A stretch of 64,000 bases of DNA, from contig OZ024747.1 in assembly GCA_964016885.1 (NCBI GenBank), positions 51,646,001 through 51,710,000 of the forward strand, written 5' to 3'. Positions within the stretch are counted from its first letter, which is position 1. The number at the start of each line of letters is the position of its first letter. This DNA comes from Eledone cirrhosa (lineage: Eukaryota). The notes under the pieces are model-generated. The model was not told the DNA's origin. It searched no databases and saw only the letters and a program-made list of their open reading frames with translations. The position numbers were made by a program, and so were the translations under genes. This document shows, piece by piece, positions 7,105 through 62,864 of this stretch.

Positions 7105-7955
7105 ATATATAACAGTTTTATAAATAGACATTGACGTACCCCATTAAAAATTGACCGTTGCTTTTGGAGGCCAAAAGCAACGGTCAATTGAACGGAATTG
7201 AACTAACAATCTCACAATTAAGAATACAATTCTCTAATCACTCAGCCACGGGCCTTCATATATACACACACATACCCTCCAAAGCTTGCCACTTCCCCAC
7301 TAAAACATACTTTCGTAAAGACCTTTCACAGATGGGCATGAAGTGTATGCCTATATTTGGACATAGTAGACCCGTGATGACGACAGCTATTTTTACCGCA
7401 AAAACACCGGCGATTCACTTTGGAACAAGCTGTGGAAATTGCAAGAGCTCAGCCGTCGGGGTCTAGACTCTTTCATATTACCACACTCTACTACCCCAAT
7501 TATCGAGTGCTCTGGTGAGGTTTTTACTGCATCCACACACATATATATATATGATGAAATATATACAGAATAGAAATGGCTGTGTAGTTGCTATTTAAGG
7601 TAACTTAAAATATCAGTGGGAATACGAAGAAAGCAAGAAGGGTGGGGGAGGGGGCGTTCCTCATCAATTGTATACTGGGGGTCTAGGATATTTCCACGCT
7701 TTAAAGACAAGATATCTACCGCCCATATATATATATATAATGACAAGGAATGGTATGCCATCCGGAACCTGTTTATAGAATTCTGTCTGCCTTTGTTACT
7801 CTAAAAACAAAAATTAAAAATAAACTATAGCTTTGTAGAATTAGCTTTTAATGAATTCCCTTTTCTATCAACCAATGACCTATACCCATCCCACTCCCCA
7901 CCCTCACCTACCACTTGTAGAGACCTATAAATACCATATTTATTTTTTGATACCC

Positions 7956-8329: not shown

Positions 8330-10227
<1,898 letters not shown>

Positions 10228-10359
10228 TATATGTATGTACGTATACATGCATACTTACATTTAAGTAAGTGCCATACTAAGAGTGAGAAATGAAATTTCG
10301 TTTTCATTTTGTTTCAATTTATCGTTTTCGGTATGCCTGACCGATTTAACTCACTCAAT

Positions 10360-10408
10360 ATGCAAATTAGGCTGCTCAGCCGTTAATTTTCATAAGGAAA
10401 GTATATAC
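10360..10408 (+). promoter_or_regulatory. Putative snRNA/U6-type upstream promoter (octamer + TATA) in each array unit
   Basis: ATGCAAAT at 10360-10367 and TATATA at 10402-10407, about 40 nt upstream of the hammerhead; conserved in diverged copies; PSE not verifiable by eye. Confidence 0.5.
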
Positions 10409-10440
10409 TTTCGAACGTTCAACTATCTGGCAGATGGGTA

Positions 10441-10485
10441 AACGGTGCTGATGATAGCTAACAAGCTTGAAACTAGTACATCGTT
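10441..10485 (+). ncRNA. Type I hammerhead ribozyme (representative of 16 identical copies)
   Basis: aacggtg-CTGATGA-t-agct-aaca-agct-t-GAAAC-ta-GTA-catcgtt: intact core, stem I aacggtg/catcgtt extendable to 10417-10503, 4-bp stem II, minimal palindromic stem III (ACTAGT), predicted cleavage after 10478. Confidence 0.9.
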
Positions 10486-13400
10486 CCTGTGTCAGTGTTG
10501 AACAAAAAGGTGACGTGGTTGCCTTAACACCGTATGGCATAAATTCAGGCTGTTCAGTTTGTTTACAAACGAACAAAGCGACGTTATAATAAGCGCCGCT
10601 AAACTGATACGTGCATATATGTATGTGTACCTGTATGCATATGTATGTATATATGTATATATATATATATATGTGCATGCTACTGTACGTCTGTATACAT
10701 ATATGTATGTACGTATACATGCATACTTACATTTAAGTAAGTGCCATACTAAGAGTGAGAAATGAAATTTCGTTTTCATTTTGTTTCAATTTATCGTTTT
10801 CGGTATGCCTGACCGATTTAACTCACTCAATATGCAAATTAGGCTGCTCAGCCGTTAATTTTCATAAGGAAAGTATATACTTTCGAACGTTCAACTATCT
10901 GGCAGATGGGTAAACGGTGCTGATGATAGCTAACAAGCTTGAAACTAGTACATCGTTCCTGTGTCAGTGTTGAACAAAAAGGTGACGTGGTTGCCTTAAC
11001 ACCGTATGGCATAAATTCAGGCTGTTCAGTTTGTTTACAAACGAACAAAGCGACGTTATAATAAGCGCCGCTAAACTGATACGTGCATATATGTATGTGT
11101 ACCTGTATGCATATGTATGTATATATGTATATATATATATATATGTGCATGCTACTGTACGTCTGTATACATATATGTATGTACGTATACATGCATACTT
11201 ACATTTAAGTAAGTGCCATACTAAGAGTGAGAAATGAAATTTCGTTTTCATTTTGTTTCAATTTATCGTTTTCGGTATGCCTGACCGATTTAACTCACTC
11301 AATATGCAAATTAGGCTGCTCAGCCGTTAATTTTCATAAGGAAAGTATATACTTTCGAACGTTCAACTATCTGGCAGATGGGTAAACGGTGCTGATGATA
11401 GCTAACAAGCTTGAAACTAGTACATCGTTCCTGTGTCAGTGTTGAACAAAAAGGTGACGTGGTTGCCTTAACACCGTATGGCATAAATTCAGGCTGTTCA
11501 GTTTGTTTACAAACGAACAAAGCGACGTTATAATAAGCGCCGCTAAACTGATACGTGCATATATGTATGTGTACCTGTATGCATATGTATGTATATATGT
11601 ATATATATATATATATGTGCATGCTACTGTACGTCTGTATACATATATGTATGTACGTATACATGCATACTTACATTTAAGTAAGTGCCATACTAAGAGT
11701 GAGAAATGAAATTTCGTTTTCATTTTGTTTCAATTTATCGTTTTCGGTATGCCTGACCGATTTAACTCACTCAATATGCAAATTAGGCTGCTCAGCCGTT
11801 AATTTTCATAAGGAAAGTATATACTTTCGAACGTTCAACTATCTGGCAGATGGGTAAACGGTGCTGATGATAGCTAACAAGCTTGAAACTAGTACATCGT
11901 TCCTGTGTCAGTGTTGAACAAAAAGGTGACGTGGTTGCCTTAACACCGTATGGCATAAATTCAGGCTGTTCAGTTTGTTTACAAACGAACAAAGCGACGT
12001 TATAATAAGCGCCGCTAAACTGATACGTGCATATATGTATGTGTACCTGTATGCATATGTATGTATATATGTATATATATATATATATGTGCATGCTACT
12101 GTACGTCTGTATACATATATGTATGTACGTATACATGCATACTTACATTTAAGTAAGTGCCATACTAAGAGTGAGAAATGAAATTTCGTTTTCATTTTGT
12201 TTCAATTTATCGTTTTCGGTATGCCTGACCGATTTAACTCACTCAATATGCAAATTAGGCTGCTCAGCCGTTAATTTTCATAAGGAAAGTATATACTTTC
12301 GAACGTTCAACTATCTGGCAGATGGGTAAACGGTGCTGATGATAGCTAACAAGCTTGAAACTAGTACATCGTTCCTGTGTCAGTGTTGAACAAAAAGGTG
12401 ACGTGGTTGCCTTAACACCGTATGGCATAAATTCAGGCTGTTCAGTTTGTTTACAAACGAACAAAGCGACGTTATAATAAGCGCCGCTAAACTGATACGT
12501 GCATATATGTATGTGTACCTGTATGCATATGTATGTATATATGTATATATATATATATATGTGCATGCTACTGTACGTCTGTATACATATATGTATGTAC
12601 GTATACATGCATACTTACATTTAAGTAAGTGCCATACTAAGAGTGAGAAATGAAATTTCGTTTTCATTTTGTTTCAATTTATCGTTTTCGGTATGCCTGA
12701 CCGATTTAACTCACTCAATATGCAAATTAGGCTGCTCAGCCGTTAATTTTCATAAGGAAAGTATATACTTTCGAACGTTCAACTATCTGGCAGATGGGTA
12801 AACGGTGCTGATGATAGCTAACAAGCTTGAAACTAGTACATCGTTCCTGTGTCAGTGTTGAACAAAAAGGTGACGTGGTTGCCTTAACACCGTATGGCAT
12901 AAATTCAGGCTGTTCAGTTTGTTTACAAACGAACAAAGCGACGTTATAATAAGCGCCGCTAAACTGATACGTGCATATATGTATGTGTACCTGTATGCAT
13001 ATGTATGTATATATGTATATATATATATATATGTGCATGCTACTGTACGTCTGTATACATATATGTATGTACGTATACATGCATACTTACATTTAAGTAA
13101 GTGCCATACTAAGAGTGAGAAATGAAATTTCGTTTTCATTTTGTTTCAATTTATCGTTTTCGGTATGCCTGACCGATTTAACTCACTCAATATGCAAATT
13201 AGGCTGCTCAGCCGTTAATTTTCATAAGGAAAGTATATACTTTCGAACGTTCAACTATCTGGCAGATGGGTAAACGGTGCTGATGATAGCTAACAAGCTT
13301 GAAACTAGTACATCGTTCCTGTGTCAGTGTTGAACAAAAAGGTGACGTGGTTGCCTTAACACCGTATGGCATAAATTCAGGCTGTTCAGTTTGTTTACAA

Positions 13401-15936
13401 ACGAACAAAGCGACGTTATAATAAGCGCCGCTAAACTGATACGTGCATATATGTATGTGTACCTGTATGCATATGTATGTATATATGTATATATATATAT
13501 ATATGTGCATGCTACTGTACGTCTGTATACATATATGTATGTACGTATACATGCATACTTACATTTAAGTAAGTGCCATACTAAGAGTGAGAAATGAAAT
13601 TTCGTTTTCATTTTGTTTCAATTTATCGTTTTCGGTATGCCTGACCGATTTAACTCACTCAATATGCAAATTAGGCTGCTCAGCCGTTAATTTTCATAAG
13701 GAAAGTATATACTTTCGAACGTTCAACTATCTGGCAGATGGGTAAACGGTGCTGATGATAGCTAACAAGCTTGAAACTAGTACATCGTTCCTGTGTCAGT
13801 GTTGAACAAAAAGGTGACGTGGTTGCCTTAACACCGTATGGCATAAATTCAGGCTGTTCAGTTTGTTTACAAACGAACAAAGCGACGTTATAATAAGCGC
13901 CGCTAAACTGATACGTGCATATATGTATGTGTACCTGTATGCATATGTATGTATATATGTATATATATATATATATGTGCATGCTACTGTACGTCTGTAT
14001 ACATATATGTATGTACGTATACATGCATACTTACATTTAAGTAAGTGCCATACTAAGAGTGAGAAATGAAATTTCGTTTTCATTTTGTTTCAATTTATCG
14101 TTTTCGGTATGCCTGACCGATTTAACTCACTCAATATGCAAATTAGGCTGCTCAGCCGTTAATTTTCATAAGGAAAGTATATACTTTCGAACGTTCAACT
14201 ATCTGGCAGATGGGTAAACGGTGCTGATGATAGCTAACAAGCTTGAAACTAGTACATCGTTCCTGTGTCAGTGTTGAACAAAAAGGTGACGTGGTTGCCT
14301 TAACACCGTATGGCATAAATTCAGGCTGTTCAGTTTGTTTACAAACGAACAAAGCGACGTTATAATAAGCGCCGCTAAACTGATACGTGCATATATGTAT
14401 GTGTACCTGTATGCATATGTATGTATATATGTATATATATATATATATGTGCATGCTACTGTACGTCTGTATACATATATGTATGTACGTATACATGCAT
14501 ACTTACATTTAAGTAAGTGCCATACTAAGAGTGAGAAATGAAATTTCGTTTTCATTTTGTTTCAATTTATCGTTTTCGGTATGCCTGACCGATTTAACTC
14601 ACTCAATATGCAAATTAGGCTGCTCAGCCGTTAATTTTCATAAGGAAAGTATATACTTTCGAACGTTCAACTATCTGGCAGATGGGTAAACGGTGCTGAT
14701 GATAGCTAACAAGCTTGAAACTAGTACATCGTTCCTGTGTCAGTGTTGAACAAAAAGGTGACGTGGTTGCCTTAACACCGTATGGCATAAATTCAGGCTG
14801 TTCAGTTTGTTTACAAACGAACAAAGCGACGTTATAATAAGCGCCGCTAAACTGATACGTGCATATATGTATGTGTACCTGTATGCATATGTATGTATAT
14901 ATGTATATATATATATATATGTGCATGCTACTGTACGTCTGTATACATATATGTATGTACGTATACATGCATACTTACATTTAAGTAAGTGCCATACTAA
15001 GAGTGAGAAATGAAATTTCGTTTTCATTTTGTTTCAATTTATCGTTTTCGGTATGCCTGACCGATTTAACTCACTCAATATGCAAATTAGGCTGCTCAGC
15101 CGTTAATTTTCATAAGGAAAGTATATACTTTCGAACATCTGGCAGATGGGTAAACGGTGCTGATGATAGCTAACAAGCTTGAAACTAGTACATCGTTCCT
15201 GTGTCAGTGTTGAACAAAAAGGTGACGTGGTTGCCTTAACACCGTATGGCATAAATTCAGGCTGTTCAGTTTGTTTACAAACGAACAAAGCGACGTTATA
15301 ATAAGCGCCGCTAAACTGATACGTGCATATATGTATGTGTACCTGTATGCATATGTATGTATATATGTATATATATATATATATGTGCATGCTACTGTAC
15401 GTCTGTATACATATATGTATGTACGTATACATGCATACTTACATTTAAGTAAGTGCCATACTAAGAGTGAGAAATGAAATTTCGTTTTCATTTTGTTTCA
15501 ATTTATCGTTTTCGGTATGCCTGACCGATTTAACTCACTCAATATGCAAATTAGGCTGCTCAGCCGTTAATTTTCATAAGGAAAGTATATACTTTCGAAC
15601 GTTCAACTATCTGGCAGATGGGTAAACGGTGCTGATGATAGCTAACAAGCTTGAAACTAGTACATCGTTCCTGTGTCAGTGTTGAACAAAAAGGTGACGT
15701 GGTTGCCTTAACACCGTATGGCATAAATTCAGGCTGTTCAGTTTGTTTACAAACGAACAAAGCGACGTTATAATAAGCGCCGCTAAACTGATACGTGCAT
15801 ATATGTATGTGTACCTGTATGCATATGTATGTATATATGTATATATATATATATATGTGCATGCTACTGTACGTCTGTATACATATATGTATGTACGTAT
15901 ACATGCATACTTATATATATATATATAAATATATAC

Positions 15937-16133
15937 AGGAACAAATAAGACCCCGACGGCTGAGCTCAAGCCGTTTCGACGGCTAATTCAGTCCAGAATT
16001 AGCCGTCGAAACGGCTTGAGCTCAGCCGTCGGGGTCTTATTTGTTCCTATTACCCACTCTACTACCCTAAGTATTGAGTACTTTGGTGCGTTATGGTCCA
16101 CTTGGTTCCTTACCACATTTCCTTCGTTATAAA
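15937..16133 (+). mobile_element. Fold-back element: 53-bp perfect inverted repeat containing the 3' half of a hammerhead, plus ~85-bp one-sided tail
   Basis: Arms 15937-15989 and 15996-16048; GAAAC-ggct-tgagctc-agcc-GTC; flanked by (TA)n. Confidence 0.75.
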
Positions 16134-16386
16134 TATATATATAGTAGCGAGATCTAGGCAAATAGATGTCTATTGAAACGTACGTAAGAACCGAATAAAT
16201 CTCTTTTACTGCATCTTTCTGTTCTTTTTAATTCTCTATACACGTCCCGGAATATAGCTAAACTGGAATATACAGCTTTTTTCTGCATTTCGTTGAGCAC
16301 CACTCTGTTGTAAGCTGACATTCCACTACACGGTACATAACACTGTGTCCTGGAAAACATTAATGCACTCTTGCATAACCAATTAT

Positions 16387-18429: not shown

Positions 18430-18466
<37 letters not shown>

Positions 18467-18468
<2 letters not shown>

Positions 18469-18835
18469 AAAAAATGAAACGAAATTTCATTTCCCACTCT
18501 TAGTACGGCTGTTACTTAAAAATAAGTATGTATACATGCATACATATATGTATACAGACCTACAGTAGTATGTATATATATACATAGATTTAATCATCTA
18601 GCAGGAAGGTATATGGTGCTGACGATATTTAATAAGCTTGAAACTAGTACATCGTTCCTTTGTCAGTGTTGAACAAAGGGGCTACGATGGTTGCTAAACA
18701 CTGTACGGCTTAATTCGGGATGTTTGTTTACAAACAAACCGAGCATTATAATAAATGTTCGGTAAATCCATACATATATATATATATGTGCATGTATGTA
18801 TATATATACATACTACTTTACGTCTGTATACATAT
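18467..18835. mobile_element. Diverged, internally inverted copy of the 472-bp retrozyme family
   Basis: 18467-18585 in - orientation, 18592-18835 in + orientation with CTGACGA...GAAACTAGTA at 18612-18656. Confidence 0.85.
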
Positions 18836-19392: not shown

Positions 19393-19737
19393 ATATATAA
19401 TGAGCGATTGCCGTTTCAACAGCTAGCAGTTGATACGGCAAGAGCTCAGCCGTCGGGTCCAGATTCTTTATAATGTAACCATTCTCTGCTACCCCAAATA
19501 TCGAGTACTCTGTTGAGTAATGATCTAACCAGTTTTAAACAGAATCCATCCTGATTTATATAATGATGCATATATATGTGTGTTAACAATGGTTGATTTG
19601 TGAAACATTAGTGGGATTTTAACATTTAAAAATTGTGCGTCCCAACGCTGTTTATTACAACAGTGGTAGTCTATCACTTTAGATAATAAGATTGGAAAAT
19701 GTGAATTAACGTGACTTTGTTACTGGCGTTGTGATGC

Positions 19738-20550: not shown

Positions 20551-20765
20551 AAATAACGAAGGAATTGTGGTAAGGAACCAGATGGACCATAACGCACCAG
20601 AGTACTCAATACTTAGGGTAAGTAGAGTGGGTAATAGGAAAAAGTATGACTCCGACAGCAGAGCTCAAGCCGTTTCGACGGCTATTTCTGGACCAAGAAA
20701 TAGGTCCAGAAATAGCCGTCGAAACGGCTTGAGCTCTGCCGTCGAGTTCATACTTTTTCCTATTG
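20551..20765 (-). mobile_element. Half-hammerhead fold-back element (same family as 15937)
   Basis: Inverted repeat centred on ~20698 with GAAACggcttgagctctgccGTC; tail is the reverse complement of 16050-16130; ctattgttttaaata on both flanks (possible TSD). Confidence 0.75.
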
Positions 20766-22149: not shown

Positions 22150-23500
22150 GTGGGTAGTTGGTGTTGTTGTTTCCTTCGTTGTTTAGCTAACTCATCGAGC
22201 AACAAAGGATCCAAAGACTTTCCAGCCGTGACCATCTGGATGTTTTAAGGAATATGTTGGACGGTGTTTGTCTTTTTATTTACAATATTCTGTTTATATT
22301 GGTGGTGTCTGCATTTTCTCTTGTGGGTGTTTTGTGATGTGTGGAGGTTCTTTTTGTGTGTATTTTTTTTTTTTTTTTGTGGGGTTAGGGTTAGGGTTAG
22401 GGTTAGGGTTAGGGTTAGGGTTAGGGTTAGGGTTAGGGTTAGAGTTTGGCTGCTCGTCTTCGCTCCTGGAAGACGAGGTATCTGTGACAGTTATTTTGTC
22501 TGTGTTTTCGTGTGTGTGTTTGGGTTTGTGTTTGTGTTTGTGCCAATGTGTGTATTGTGGAGGAGGGAGGAATGGGAGAGCTTTACTTGTTTTGTTTTTT
22601 TCCTGGGTGGTCAAATTTAGTGGTGGTGGTGTTTCTTCTGGTAGTGTTACCGGTGCTGGTATTGGTGGTGGTCCCCTCCCCAGCATGGGCAGCAGTGAAA
22701 GTTTCCGAACTCTTGCATTTTTGAGGTGAGGGCGGAAGGCTCGAAGTGAGTTGTTTCGCCGCAGACGAAACAGTGCGGCCCTTTTCCATTGCACATTACT
22801 AGCAGAGCTGTCTCGGTTTGGGAACTTTTTCAGGTTCTCAGGACTGATCTAGGGAATATCTCCAGGTCAACCTCGAACCGATCCTCCCAGTCTTTTCTCG
22901 TTACCTCGATCGGGACGGCATCCATCCCCTCCATAATCACGCATCCCATGAGCCACCAAATATCTAGTCCTGGTGGAATCTTGAGAATGCGGACTTTAAC
23001 AGTACTTTTGTCCCGTGTGGGTGGGTACATGAGGAACTTGCTGGTTATGCAAGGGGTTAAGGTTAGGAGGGCTTCTGACTTAAACAGTACTGAGATGGTG
23101 CCGTATTGTCTGCCCATCACTCTGTATTCTGTGTCGTCTGAGATGCACCTCAATGCAGCTATGACTTCTGGCTAAGAATGTTGGTGGCTTTTTTAGTCTC
23201 CACCGAGATGCATCTAAAGGCAACAATTTTCCTCTCCACCGCTTTTATGGTTTCTGCCAAGATAGTTAAGTTGGCCAAGGTTTTCTCTTGTTTAATGAGC
23301 TTCCAGGCCTGGATCAACATTTCCTCTTTTTTTGTCAGGTCCATGATAAAGCATGGCCTTTTTATGGATGCTGCAGCTTCGAAAGGGTTCTTGTTGTTTG
23401 TACTTCTGGTCACATTGTTGTCACAAGAAGTTGTATTGAAGGCAAATTGACTGTTATTTCTTGCAAAATTAAACAGGGATGTTAAAGACACTTTCGAATT
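22150..23500 (-). pseudogene. Degenerate gag/ORF1-like coding remnant of a non-LTR retrotransposon
   Basis: Broken minus-strand ORFs (TVKVRILKIPPG; GKGPHCFVCGETTH zinc-knuckle-like; Pro/Lys-rich tail) with stops and frameshifts. Confidence 0.55.
22382..22442 (+). repeat. Interstitial telomeric repeat (TTAGGG)~10
   Basis: Perfect ttaggg run. Confidence 0.95.
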
Positions 23501-26489: not shown

Positions 26490-27168
26490 TAAGTATGTAT
26501 ACGTACATACATATATGTATACAGACGTACAGTAGTATGTATATACATACATACATGCACATATATATATATATATATACGTATGGGTTTACCAAACATT
26601 TATTATAATGCTCGGTTTGTTTGTAAATAAAAAAAGCCCGAATTATTAGGCGTACAGTGTTAGGCAACCATCGTTACCCTTTTGTTCAACACTGACAAAG
26701 TAACGATGAACTAGTTTCTAGCTTATTAGCTGTCATCAGTACCGTATACTTTCCTGTCAGTTGATTGAACGTTTGAAAGTATATACTTTACTTATGCGTA
26801 TTAACGGCTGGGCAGCCTAATTTGCATATCGAGTGAGTTAGTCGGCCGGGCGTACCGAAAACGATAAATGGAAAAAAATGAAATTTCATTTCTCACTCTT
26901 ACTACGGCTGATACTTAAATATAAGCATGTATACGTACATACAAATATGTATGCAGACGCACAGTAGTATATATATATACACATACATGCACACATATAT
27001 ATATGTACGTATGGGTTTACCGAACATTTATTATAATGCTCGGTTTGTTTGTAAACAAACAGGCCGAATTATTAGCCGTACAGTGTTCGGCAACCATCGT
27101 TGACCTTTGTTCAACACTGACAACGTATCAGCCGTACTAAGAGTGAGAAATGAAATATCATTTTTTCC
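26490..27168 (-). mobile_element. Diverged ~1.5-unit copy of the retrozyme family with short terminal inversion
   Basis: Hammerhead on - at 26702-26746 (CTGATGA...GAAACTAGTT); octamer atttgcat ~26820; inverted piece 27125-27168. Confidence 0.85.
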
Positions 27169-35914: not shown

Positions 35915-36172
35915 ATATATATACAATATATTAACAAATGGAAACTATATTTATAAAACCATATTTATTTTATTATAAATATTTCAAGGGCCACCAAGGC
36001 AAATTATGGTGCGCTTTCATCAGATAAAATACAATACAAAATTAGTTTTATAAATAAATATTGACATACCCTGAAAAAAGACGATTTTGTCTTGGCGGCC
36101 CTTGAAATTTGTATAATAAATTAAATATGCTTCTATAAATATAGTTTCCATTTCTTAATATATTGTATATTT
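35915..36172 (-). mobile_element. PLE-type inverted pLTR remnant with hammerhead (family B)
   Basis: Hammerhead on - at 35966-36032; 36090-36170 is an inverted partial copy of 35920-35998. Confidence 0.7.
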
Positions 36173-36255
36173 ACTCGACTAAATTGTTGAGTGCTTTATA
36201 TCAGTTATAAAATCTGTTTAAGCTTGTTGAATCCCAACAAATTAAATATAACCTC

Positions 36256-41958: not shown

Positions 41959-42120
<162 letters not shown>

Positions 42121-42415
42121 CAAATAACGAAACGAAATTAAATTTCGTTTCGTTTGTAACTCACTTTTGTATGACTGACGCTTAAACAATTAAGTTCAAA
42201 ATGTACATCCACATATGTATACTGAAATACTAGTATGCATATGAATACACACACGTATACATATGTAGATGTACCGAGTTTTTCACTGGTTACTTTACTG
42301 TGAGTGTCCAGCTACTCTGCATGCAAACACACAGACAAACCGGTTTTTAGAGTCATACTGGTTTTTGAGGAAACACCTTTCCTCTATTCTCCAGAAAGCC
42401 AGACAAGGAATATTG

Positions 42416-42567
<152 letters not shown>

Positions 42568-47442: not shown

Positions 47443-47815
47443 GTAAGTATGTATACGTACATACATATATGTATACAGACGTACAGTAGTATGTATATAT
47501 ATATATATATACATATATGCACACACATATATATGTACGTATGGATTCACCGAACATTTATTATAATGCTCGGTGTGTTTGTAAACAAACATCCCGTATT
47601 AAGCCGTAGTGTCTAGCAACCATCGTACTCGTTTGTTCAACACTGAAAAAGGATCGCTGTACTAGTTTCAAGCTTATTAGCTATCATCATCAACGTATAC
47701 CTTCCTGCCAGATGATTGAACGTCTGAAAGTATATACTTTCCTTATGCATATTAACGACTGAGCAGCCTAATTTGCAAATCGAGTGGGTTAATCGGCCGG
47801 GTGCACCGAAAACAT
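47443..47815 (-). mobile_element. Diverged monomeric copy of the retrozyme family
   Basis: Hammerhead on - with ATGATGA (core C mutated)...GAAACTAGTA; aagtatatact and atttgca motifs retained. Confidence 0.85.
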
Positions 47816-52597: not shown

Positions 52598-53221
52598 CTT
52601 TAGAGAATACTATATATTCTCAAAGGTTTTAGTGCGTGACAGAAATGAGATACAGAATCCTGACAAAGGTAATAACCCAGAAGCAACGTTTTCGATTGTT
52701 TCTCTGTGCCACTATTAGAACAAAAAGATGGCGATGGTTATCTAAACCACATAGTCTAATGAGGCAGTTTGCTTGCAAACGAATCGAATATTATTAATAT
52801 ATAGAAATGAGAGGTTACGTAATAACTGGTTTCATATGTCAGAGTCTACCTCTTATAAGGTACAAACCTTTCCCTCTCTCCTTTGTCTCCTCTTTCTCCT
52901 CTCTTTCTCTCCTCTATCTGTCCTCCCTTCATTCTTCCTTTTCCCTCTCTCCTCTCTCTCTCCCCCTCATCCTCTCATCTCTCTCTTCTTTTAAGCTCCA
53001 AAGGAAGTCATCTGAAACGCAGCCATATACCGCATAACATTGCTTCTGAAGTGTTGCTTCGTTAGTACGGACTGTCTGTCGTATATGGATAAAAGATGGA
53101 GGGTAAATTAATTTCAAATAGTACCAATTTTTTTTTCTTCTGTAAAACCAAGACTGTATAAACGACTTTATTAAAGCTAATGCGGTATTGTTAAACCTTC
53201 AACTGATACTTTTGTCAGACG

Positions 53222-62791: not shown

Positions 62792-62864
62792 TGCCGAAAC
62801 CCGGGATTGAATCAGGGATCTTTAGATCTTCAGTCTAACGCTCTCCCAACTGAGCTATTTCGGT
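62792..62864 (-). tRNA. tRNA-Phe(GAA), probable pseudogene
   Basis: Matches the canonical metazoan tRNA-Phe except for four G>A changes (positions ~1, 46, 53, 57), including the B box/T-arm. Confidence 0.85.

Follow-up and report, generated by a model that had tools for sequence, protein, structure and literature searches.

A box shared with host U6-type promoters, with a TATA-like box, precedes the hammerhead in retrozyme-like repeats of Eledone cirrhosa: a candidate internal promoter

The promoter of newt satellite 2 reportedly contains octamer/PSE elements, as Coats, Zhang and Epstein found in 1994, and that of the schistosome SM-alpha satellite is said, after work by Ferbeyre in 1998, to be internal and of the tRNA type (A/B box). 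PMC2220036 describes newt satellite 2 as a tandem hammerhead repeat whose internal snRNA promoter is read by Pol II, and SM-alpha as a hammerhead repeat with a Pol III promoter within its unit. Animal retrozymes are highly and constitutively expressed, yet seemingly promoter-less according to their describers' own review (PMC7761336). Non-LTR retrozymes have been linked to Penelope-like elements in the accessible part of a recent preprint (Li, Clavereau and Pollet, 2026, bioRxiv 10.64898/2026.07.22.740005). The word 'promoter' does not appear in the searchable text of that preprint, its supplements lying outside the search. Among other non-autonomous retroelements, the available portions of PMC10886601 and PMC4494074 describe regeneration of a Pol III promoter through the repeat in Cassandra, and report no internal snRNA promoter for SINEU. 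Our literature search, which had subscription journals and preprint supplements outside its reach, returned no report of a U6-type promoter in retrozymes.

We analysed a window of 64,000 nucleotides that holds a tandem array with a 472-nt unit. The octamer, TATATA, T-rich tract and GGCAG named in the initial annotation, together with the hammerhead, were re-read in the sequence at the positions claimed, and the motifs recur every 472 nt through the array. On the unit, the T-rich tract lies at 10297-10315, ATGCAAAT at 10360, TATATA at 10402 and GGCAG at 10429, and the hammerhead core letters are CTGATGA at 10448 and GAAAC at 10469. The features of the repeat in the window are as follows.

8448-10227, minus strand: inverted, 5'-truncated arm of 3.8 units, with the 3' tail; ends in (TA)n
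10228-15913, plus strand: forward arm of 12.1 units of 472 nt; stops short of the tail, in (TA)n
10286-10322, plus strand: 3' tail hairpin, with the T-rich tract as its 3' arm; 10322 is the common 3' end of insertions
10359-10377, plus strand: box that contains the octamer and matches the proximal element of host type-3 genes; predicted to pair with 10384-10394 in an RNA hairpin, of which it is the 5' arm
10402-10407, plus strand: TATA-like box of 6 nt, 42 nt from the octamer start, inside a predicted hairpin at 10397-10412
10431-10432, plus strand: predicted start at a C/A boundary, A10432 being the TATA start +30 nt; placed from the host TATA at -30/-31
10441-10485, plus strand: putative hammerhead of type I whose palindromic helix III is very short, from sequence and folds
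10613-10699, plus strand: internal TA/TG microsatellite block of the 472-nt unit, read from the sequence
18461-18773, two-armed: older copy with its tail on the minus strand and a forward arm from about 18592 that lacks box and TATA
26579-27164, minus strand: older copy, 79% identical, whose box (25.0 bits) is intact and which keeps the TATA and a T7 tract; includes a partial second unit and a short inverted piece
42114-42420, minus strand: 5'-truncated copy of a distant lineage, promoter part absent
47537-47813, minus strand: older copy, TATA retained, octamer mutated

The inverted arm starts at the equivalent of 10431 and differs at one position in 1780 nt. In the forward arm the first 10 units are identical, and ten identical successive units are consistent with a single circular template. 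The diverged copies had been said to keep both octamer and TATA; this is true of the copy at 26785, where the spacing is also the same, and fails at 47730, where the octamer has mutated to TTGCAAAT (15.4 bits). No hammerhead accompanies the window's other octamers (43161, 62218, 51258). A different fold-back element adjoins the array at 15936-16200 and occurs again at 20553-20764, 7428-7517 and 19424-19525; its relatives turned up in 21 of 80 random stretches, in many cases next to (TA)n. The window also contains a tRNA-Phe-like gene on the minus strand (62792-62864, 57.5 bits) and an interstitial (GGGTTA)n of 10.8 copies (22382-22446).

The repeat is abundant, with 11,090 exact matches to one 34-mer of the unit in the 3.0-Gb genome and a relative in each of 12 of 80 random 10-kb genome stretches. 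Head-to-head pairs made up 41 of 78 complete loci, and the 3' tail was on a single arm in 35 of these pairs and on both arms in none (0/41). Arms ended exactly at the 10322 equivalent in 49 of 124 cases; 52 more reached the edge of the query, in or just after the microsatellite block. The ends of insertions adjoin (TA)n. The repeat shows 5' truncation, an inverted 5' copy, a one-sided tail and a microsatellite target, an anatomy of a kind described for Penelope-like elements (available text of PMC8557442). To judge from these features, it is a protein-less, non-autonomous non-LTR retrozyme with Penelope-type insertion anatomy. An autonomous RT/GIY-YIG family is present in the genome (at least 151 matches, an open frame of 863 codons), and it too has head-to-head pairs, with two kinds of 3' end. 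We found no sequence similarity between the 472-nt unit and that one family, 3' sequence included, and none of the 36 loci of that family inspected had the U6-type box. Long ORFs beside the arrays were considered as autonomous partners and rejected, being APE-RT LINEs inserted in microsatellite. Such LINEs, mostly with a PHD-finger match, lie in or beside the microsatellite blocks of the arrays (L113, L114, L119, L129, L220, L232). Contigs of another organism matched the 3' tail hairpin only (window 10282-10322), at less than 90% identity; across four contig sets the comparison revealed sequence variants and neither starts nor ends.

The hammerhead is predicted to cut after A10478. It had no match to the Rfam models at gathering score, and the motif was identified from its core letters and helices. 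A 71-nt fragment containing it folded no better than shuffles (z 0.39), and a regular expression for hammerheads missed the window's own family, which has a U-U pair at the base of helix II. In folds, helix I spans approximately 10415-10503, including about 15 nt upstream of the predicted start; A10432 is 16 nt ahead of the hammerhead core.

Alignment to host snRNA promoters, suggested as a check in the initial annotation, revealed a likeness to a proximal element that all seven host type-3 genes share. The host set comprised three distinct U6 genes, U6atac, two tRNA-Sec genes and RNase MRP; loci of U6 and U6atac that lack the box were pseudogene-like or insertion-bearing and did not enter the matrix. 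All seven promoters have the box TATG(C/G)(A/T)AAT(T/G)AG / TATGCAAAT(T/G)AG at -76 to -79 and a TATA box, 7-11 nt long, at -30/-31. None of nine U1/U2 and RNase P promoters (eight U1/U2 and RNase P) has this box, and they carry AATCAGT near -57 instead. With a matrix built from the seven promoters, scores were 19.9 bits for the window unit, 25.0 for the old copy and 22.5 for a lineage of 60% identity, the host promoters themselves scoring 12.8-27.7 bits in leave-one-out comparison. None of 1,581,196 family-masked background positions reached 17 bits. A host-derived pattern of box plus TATA, with a gap range chosen wide enough to take in the element's spacing, gave 39 genome rows and none in the control: 30 U6 or tRNA-Sec genes, 2 rows from a U6-like fragment, 6 point-mutant copies of the family and 1 unexplained.

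The octamer-PSE-TATA layout of a type-3 promoter, as originally proposed, holds in that the box matches host promoters and a TATA is present; no separate PSE was found between octamer and TATA. The octamer box is the sole proximal element common to the host type-3 genes. Likeness to the host lies mostly in the 12-mer: beyond it, P was 0.005 for the old copy, 0.02 for the distant lineage and 0.08 for the window, and similarity after the 12-mer was not significant in 8 other representatives. In sequence the 12-mer is also close to a POU site of high affinity and might thus serve Oct factors rather than SNAPc. The host distal element (about -260 to -290) is absent from the unit, where the best score was 3.9 bits against 15-24 at host sites, a comparison resting on the three U6 promoters, in all of which the element was seen. 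A U1/U2-type proximal motif in the 472-nt unit was rejected (7.3 bits at best). The box-to-TATA spacing of 42 in the unit falls outside the 46-48 of all seven host type-3 genes; in insects this spacing is tightly conserved (available text of PMC1761439).

Several host loci differed from the general pattern. The RNase P RNA gene (L091, G000:C24:12936134) has a U1/U2-type proximal motif and a distal element without the U6-type box, and from these elements may be a Pol II gene in this animal. Host U1 and U2 genes (L061-L084) have TATA-like runs near -30, which to our knowledge are unusual among animal Pol II snRNA genes. A tandem U6 array with a period of about 1.8 kb (L003-L030, G000:C19:31.78-31.84 Mb) contains units in which a 190-nt insertion parts the promoter from the gene. 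At L148 (G000:C18:15152384, minus strand), box and TATA stand at host spacing with no Rfam gene behind them, and the spacer resembles hammerhead lineage E. As a by-product, the U6-type and U1/U2-type promoter elements of this animal are now defined, which is useful for small-RNA expression tools.

We investigated box and TATA in other hammerhead lineages with a box-plus-hammerhead pattern that excluded the letter usual in the window family and did not demand a TATA. It gave 886 genome rows and none in the control. Fifty loci among the first 100 listed of the 886, together with known representatives, provided 73 modules in 8 clusters. Box invariance in this set is a product of selection, and only the TATA and C/A positions were unforced; the lineages are related by ancestry and so not independent, which makes significance estimates on them too strong. 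The modal offset of the TATA-like box from the octamer start was 41-44 nt in six of the eight clusters, 47 in one and 33 in one, and a TATA at such an offset was found beside 4 of 50 non-family octamers used as a comparison set. Away from the box, likeness between lineages is 49-73% (shuffles, 50 ± 3%). The TATA reads CATATA in two lineages. The A of the C/A boundary is at TATA+30 in 7 of 11 lineage representatives, and in the distant lineage the boundary is at +31, in a non-homologous place. That lineage was found by random sampling with no promoter filter; in BLAST it matches the window array nowhere but in the box-TATA block, and no exact run between the two is longer than the 12-mer. The box is not a universal feature, being absent from the other families with a hammerhead and from the autonomous pLTR that we examined. 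A very AT-rich fold-back element in the window (about 36000-36250, minus strand), of a family present at several loci, has a hammerhead without the box, and a fragment at 52598-52799 is 71% alike to hammerhead lineage D.

An unrelated hammerhead array, of 11 units of 310 nt, lies on the minus strand of L185 (G000:C3:190000001-190010000), and relatives of it occurred in 3 of 80 random stretches. Its host-type distal element scored 20.0 bits (host 15.4-24.2), followed after 199 nt by CCAGT (host TCAGT, 200-213) and at 226 by TATAAG (host mostly 226-237). The proximal motif is weak and is not the matrix's best site. By this geometry a start of U1/U2 type would fall 15-20 nt before the core of the next hammerhead. 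Possibly, then, retrozymes here have captured both external snRNA promoter classes, with at least eight U6-type lineages and this unrelated U1/U2-type family, although we regard that as somewhat doubtful. If true, a start just ahead of the hammerhead would let the circle inherit promoter DNA from upstream, which is lost in linear SINEs, and retrozymes would have a general way of being expressed constitutively.

The T-tract had also been proposed as a terminator, and this proposal was not borne out. The tract is a hairpin arm, pairing with an A-rich stretch that precedes it, and shows a compensatory change: T-G-A-A-A/T-T-T-C-A becomes C-G-A-A-A/T-T-T-C-G in the distant lineage. In the window it has T4 runs at most; three distinct host U6 genes end in T7-T10. 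We examined 80 terminal rows, comprising 55 young or old ends adjoining (TA)n, 5 distant-lineage ends and 20 that were unrelated, mis-sorted or without (TA)n. By-eye counting showed that all 55 of the first class extend at least one base past the T-run. T7-T8 runs, which Pol III should not easily pass, stand within the tandem units of 7 of 23 young arrays. Insertion ends beyond the T-run and T7-T8 inside arrays together indicate that the inserted RNA had passed the tract.

These ends bear on the reading of each unit as a discrete Pol III gene, from GGCAG to a T-tract terminator, with arm junctions marking the start. In keeping with it, the common 3' end is 8-12 nt behind the T-tract, T6-T8 runs are present in 15 of 17 older copies, and distant-lineage ends stop in T5 (5 of 5 listed). 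Nevertheless, the passage of the T-run in 55 of 55 listed ends and the T4 of the window unit argue against it, and so do the 5' ends. The left-arm junction does coincide with the predicted start, the arm beginning at the C10431 equivalent, but this appears to be chance, with no family-wide excess of 5' ends there: 4 of 89 mappable ends fell within -3 to +12 of the predicted start (4.4 expected) and 2 of 89 within -5 to +5 (3.0 expected), after exclusion of 37 of 126 arms whose 5' end fell inside the microsatellite block or coincided with the edge of the query. Scattered 5' ends are expected on a circular template and are no argument against a promoter. We consider the discrete gene very improbable; a terminated, promoter-less RNA could exist but would differ from the inserted RNA. 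The claim that monomers carry their own promoter fared better. Each tandem unit of the inserted copies has its box, TATA and T-tract, which means that the promoter block was part of the RNA that was copied.

It is probable that the unit contains a working promoter of one type or another. On the contrary view, box and TATA persist because the circle needs them for RNA hairpins or protein binding, and expression is read-through from host transcription, which a review proposes for retrozymes. This view draws on the describers' impression that retrozymes harbour no promoters (PMC7761336) and on RNA structure. The hairpins were read from single-sequence folds compared by eye, RNAalifold having returned no consensus structure for eight fragments of uneven cut. 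Box, TATA and T-tract each lie inside a predicted hairpin; compensatory changes occur near the TATA as well as in the tail, and the helix I pairing described above extends upstream of the predicted start. The 3' arm of the box hairpin is nearly as conserved as the box between the window and the distant lineage (runs of 11 vs 12 nt). Among lineages, however, this arm shifts in sequence and register while the box side stays constant. Structure alone predicts neither a match to host promoters at less than 1 in 1.58 million nor a fixed box-TATA-CA spacing across barely alignable spacers, and we find this view rather improbable.

The same internal promoter could instead be read by Pol II, with an Oct/POU site at -72, the TATA at -30 and a C/A initiator. 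Octamer-TATA promoters serve the immunoglobulin and histone H2B genes, which are Pol II genes, and Pol II ignores T-tracts, so that multimers would come easily. In line with this, T6-T8 runs have been copied through, the spacing differs from that of host Pol III genes, the common part is mainly an extended octamer, and the C/A start context is like that of host U1 (C/A), all seven host type-3 genes starting at T/G. The second hammerhead family here has U1/U2 geometry, and newt satellite 2 is a Pol II repeat (available text of PMC2220036). On the other hand, among the U6-class, U1/U2 and RNase P genes examined, the box is found only at host Pol III genes, the old and distant lineages match the host beyond the octamer, and one lineage has the host spacing of 47. 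Pol II transcription strikes us as unlikely, if less so than a unit with no promoter at all.

The reading we favour, with slightly less than even confidence, is that the box-TATA block is a type-3 (Pol III) promoter ahead of the hammerhead, with read-through, in a Penelope-type retrozyme. Transcription would start near A10432, and the transcripts that spread would be those that pass the T-rich hairpin and continue into the following unit. A pair of hammerheads, probably as a dimer, would then excise a 472-nt monomer holding the next unit's promoter. Dimeric cleavage is proposed because helix III is short; a basis for it in short-helix-III hammerheads is given in the available text of PMC4209133. 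The excised monomer would be ligated into a circle, and a Penelope RT/GIY-YIG protein would copy the circle round and round into (TA)n, as in the model of a circle with rolling reverse transcription (PMC7229834, as far as available). Such copying would account for the identity of the tandem units, the random position of the 5' ends, the inverted arm and the presence of the tail on one side. If this is true, a retroposon can keep an external promoter, since cuts at one hammerhead and the next bring upstream DNA, by permutation, into the RNA that is copied. With a promoter in each unit that matches the host, the question of retrozyme expression becomes testable.

The closest described systems are the metazoan non-LTR retrozymes, which in the available text (PMC7229834; bioRxiv 10.64898/2026.07.22.740005) likewise consist of short non-coding tandem units, each with a single type I hammerhead, are low in GC, number thousands of copies and co-occur with autonomous Penelope-like elements. 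No promoter is described for them, whereas here a host-matched box and TATA occur across lineages, and circles and cleavage are predicted. Penelope-like elements share the 5' truncation, inverted 5' copy, one-sided tail and (TA)n targets, and a hammerhead with short palindromic helix III (PMC8557442 and PMC4209133, available text). Unlike them, the repeat here has no ORF, its tail is about 60 nt rather than the 30-40 nt given in those texts, and it has no sequence link to the one autonomous family compared.

Cassandra/TRIMp3 and SINEU, as far as described in the accessible parts of PMC10886601 and PMC4494074, are also non-autonomous retroelements using parts of small-RNA genes. Their promoter is gene-internal or absent, whereas the 472-nt unit has upstream promoter DNA without an snRNA body. 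Newt satellite 2 is similar in being a hammerhead tandem repeat with an internal snRNA-type promoter, in the text available, but that promoter is of the Pol II, U1/U2 type, whereas the box here matches host Pol III genes and is joined by a TATA. The schistosome SM-alpha satellite has, in what is available of its description, a Pol III promoter inside the hammerhead unit, as is predicted here; its promoter is reportedly internal and tRNA-type, and the one here would be external, of the upstream type. Newt satellite 2 and the schistosome repeat are known precedents, and what is likely to be new, as far as the literature was searched, is a host U6-type box with a TATA in retrozyme lineages.
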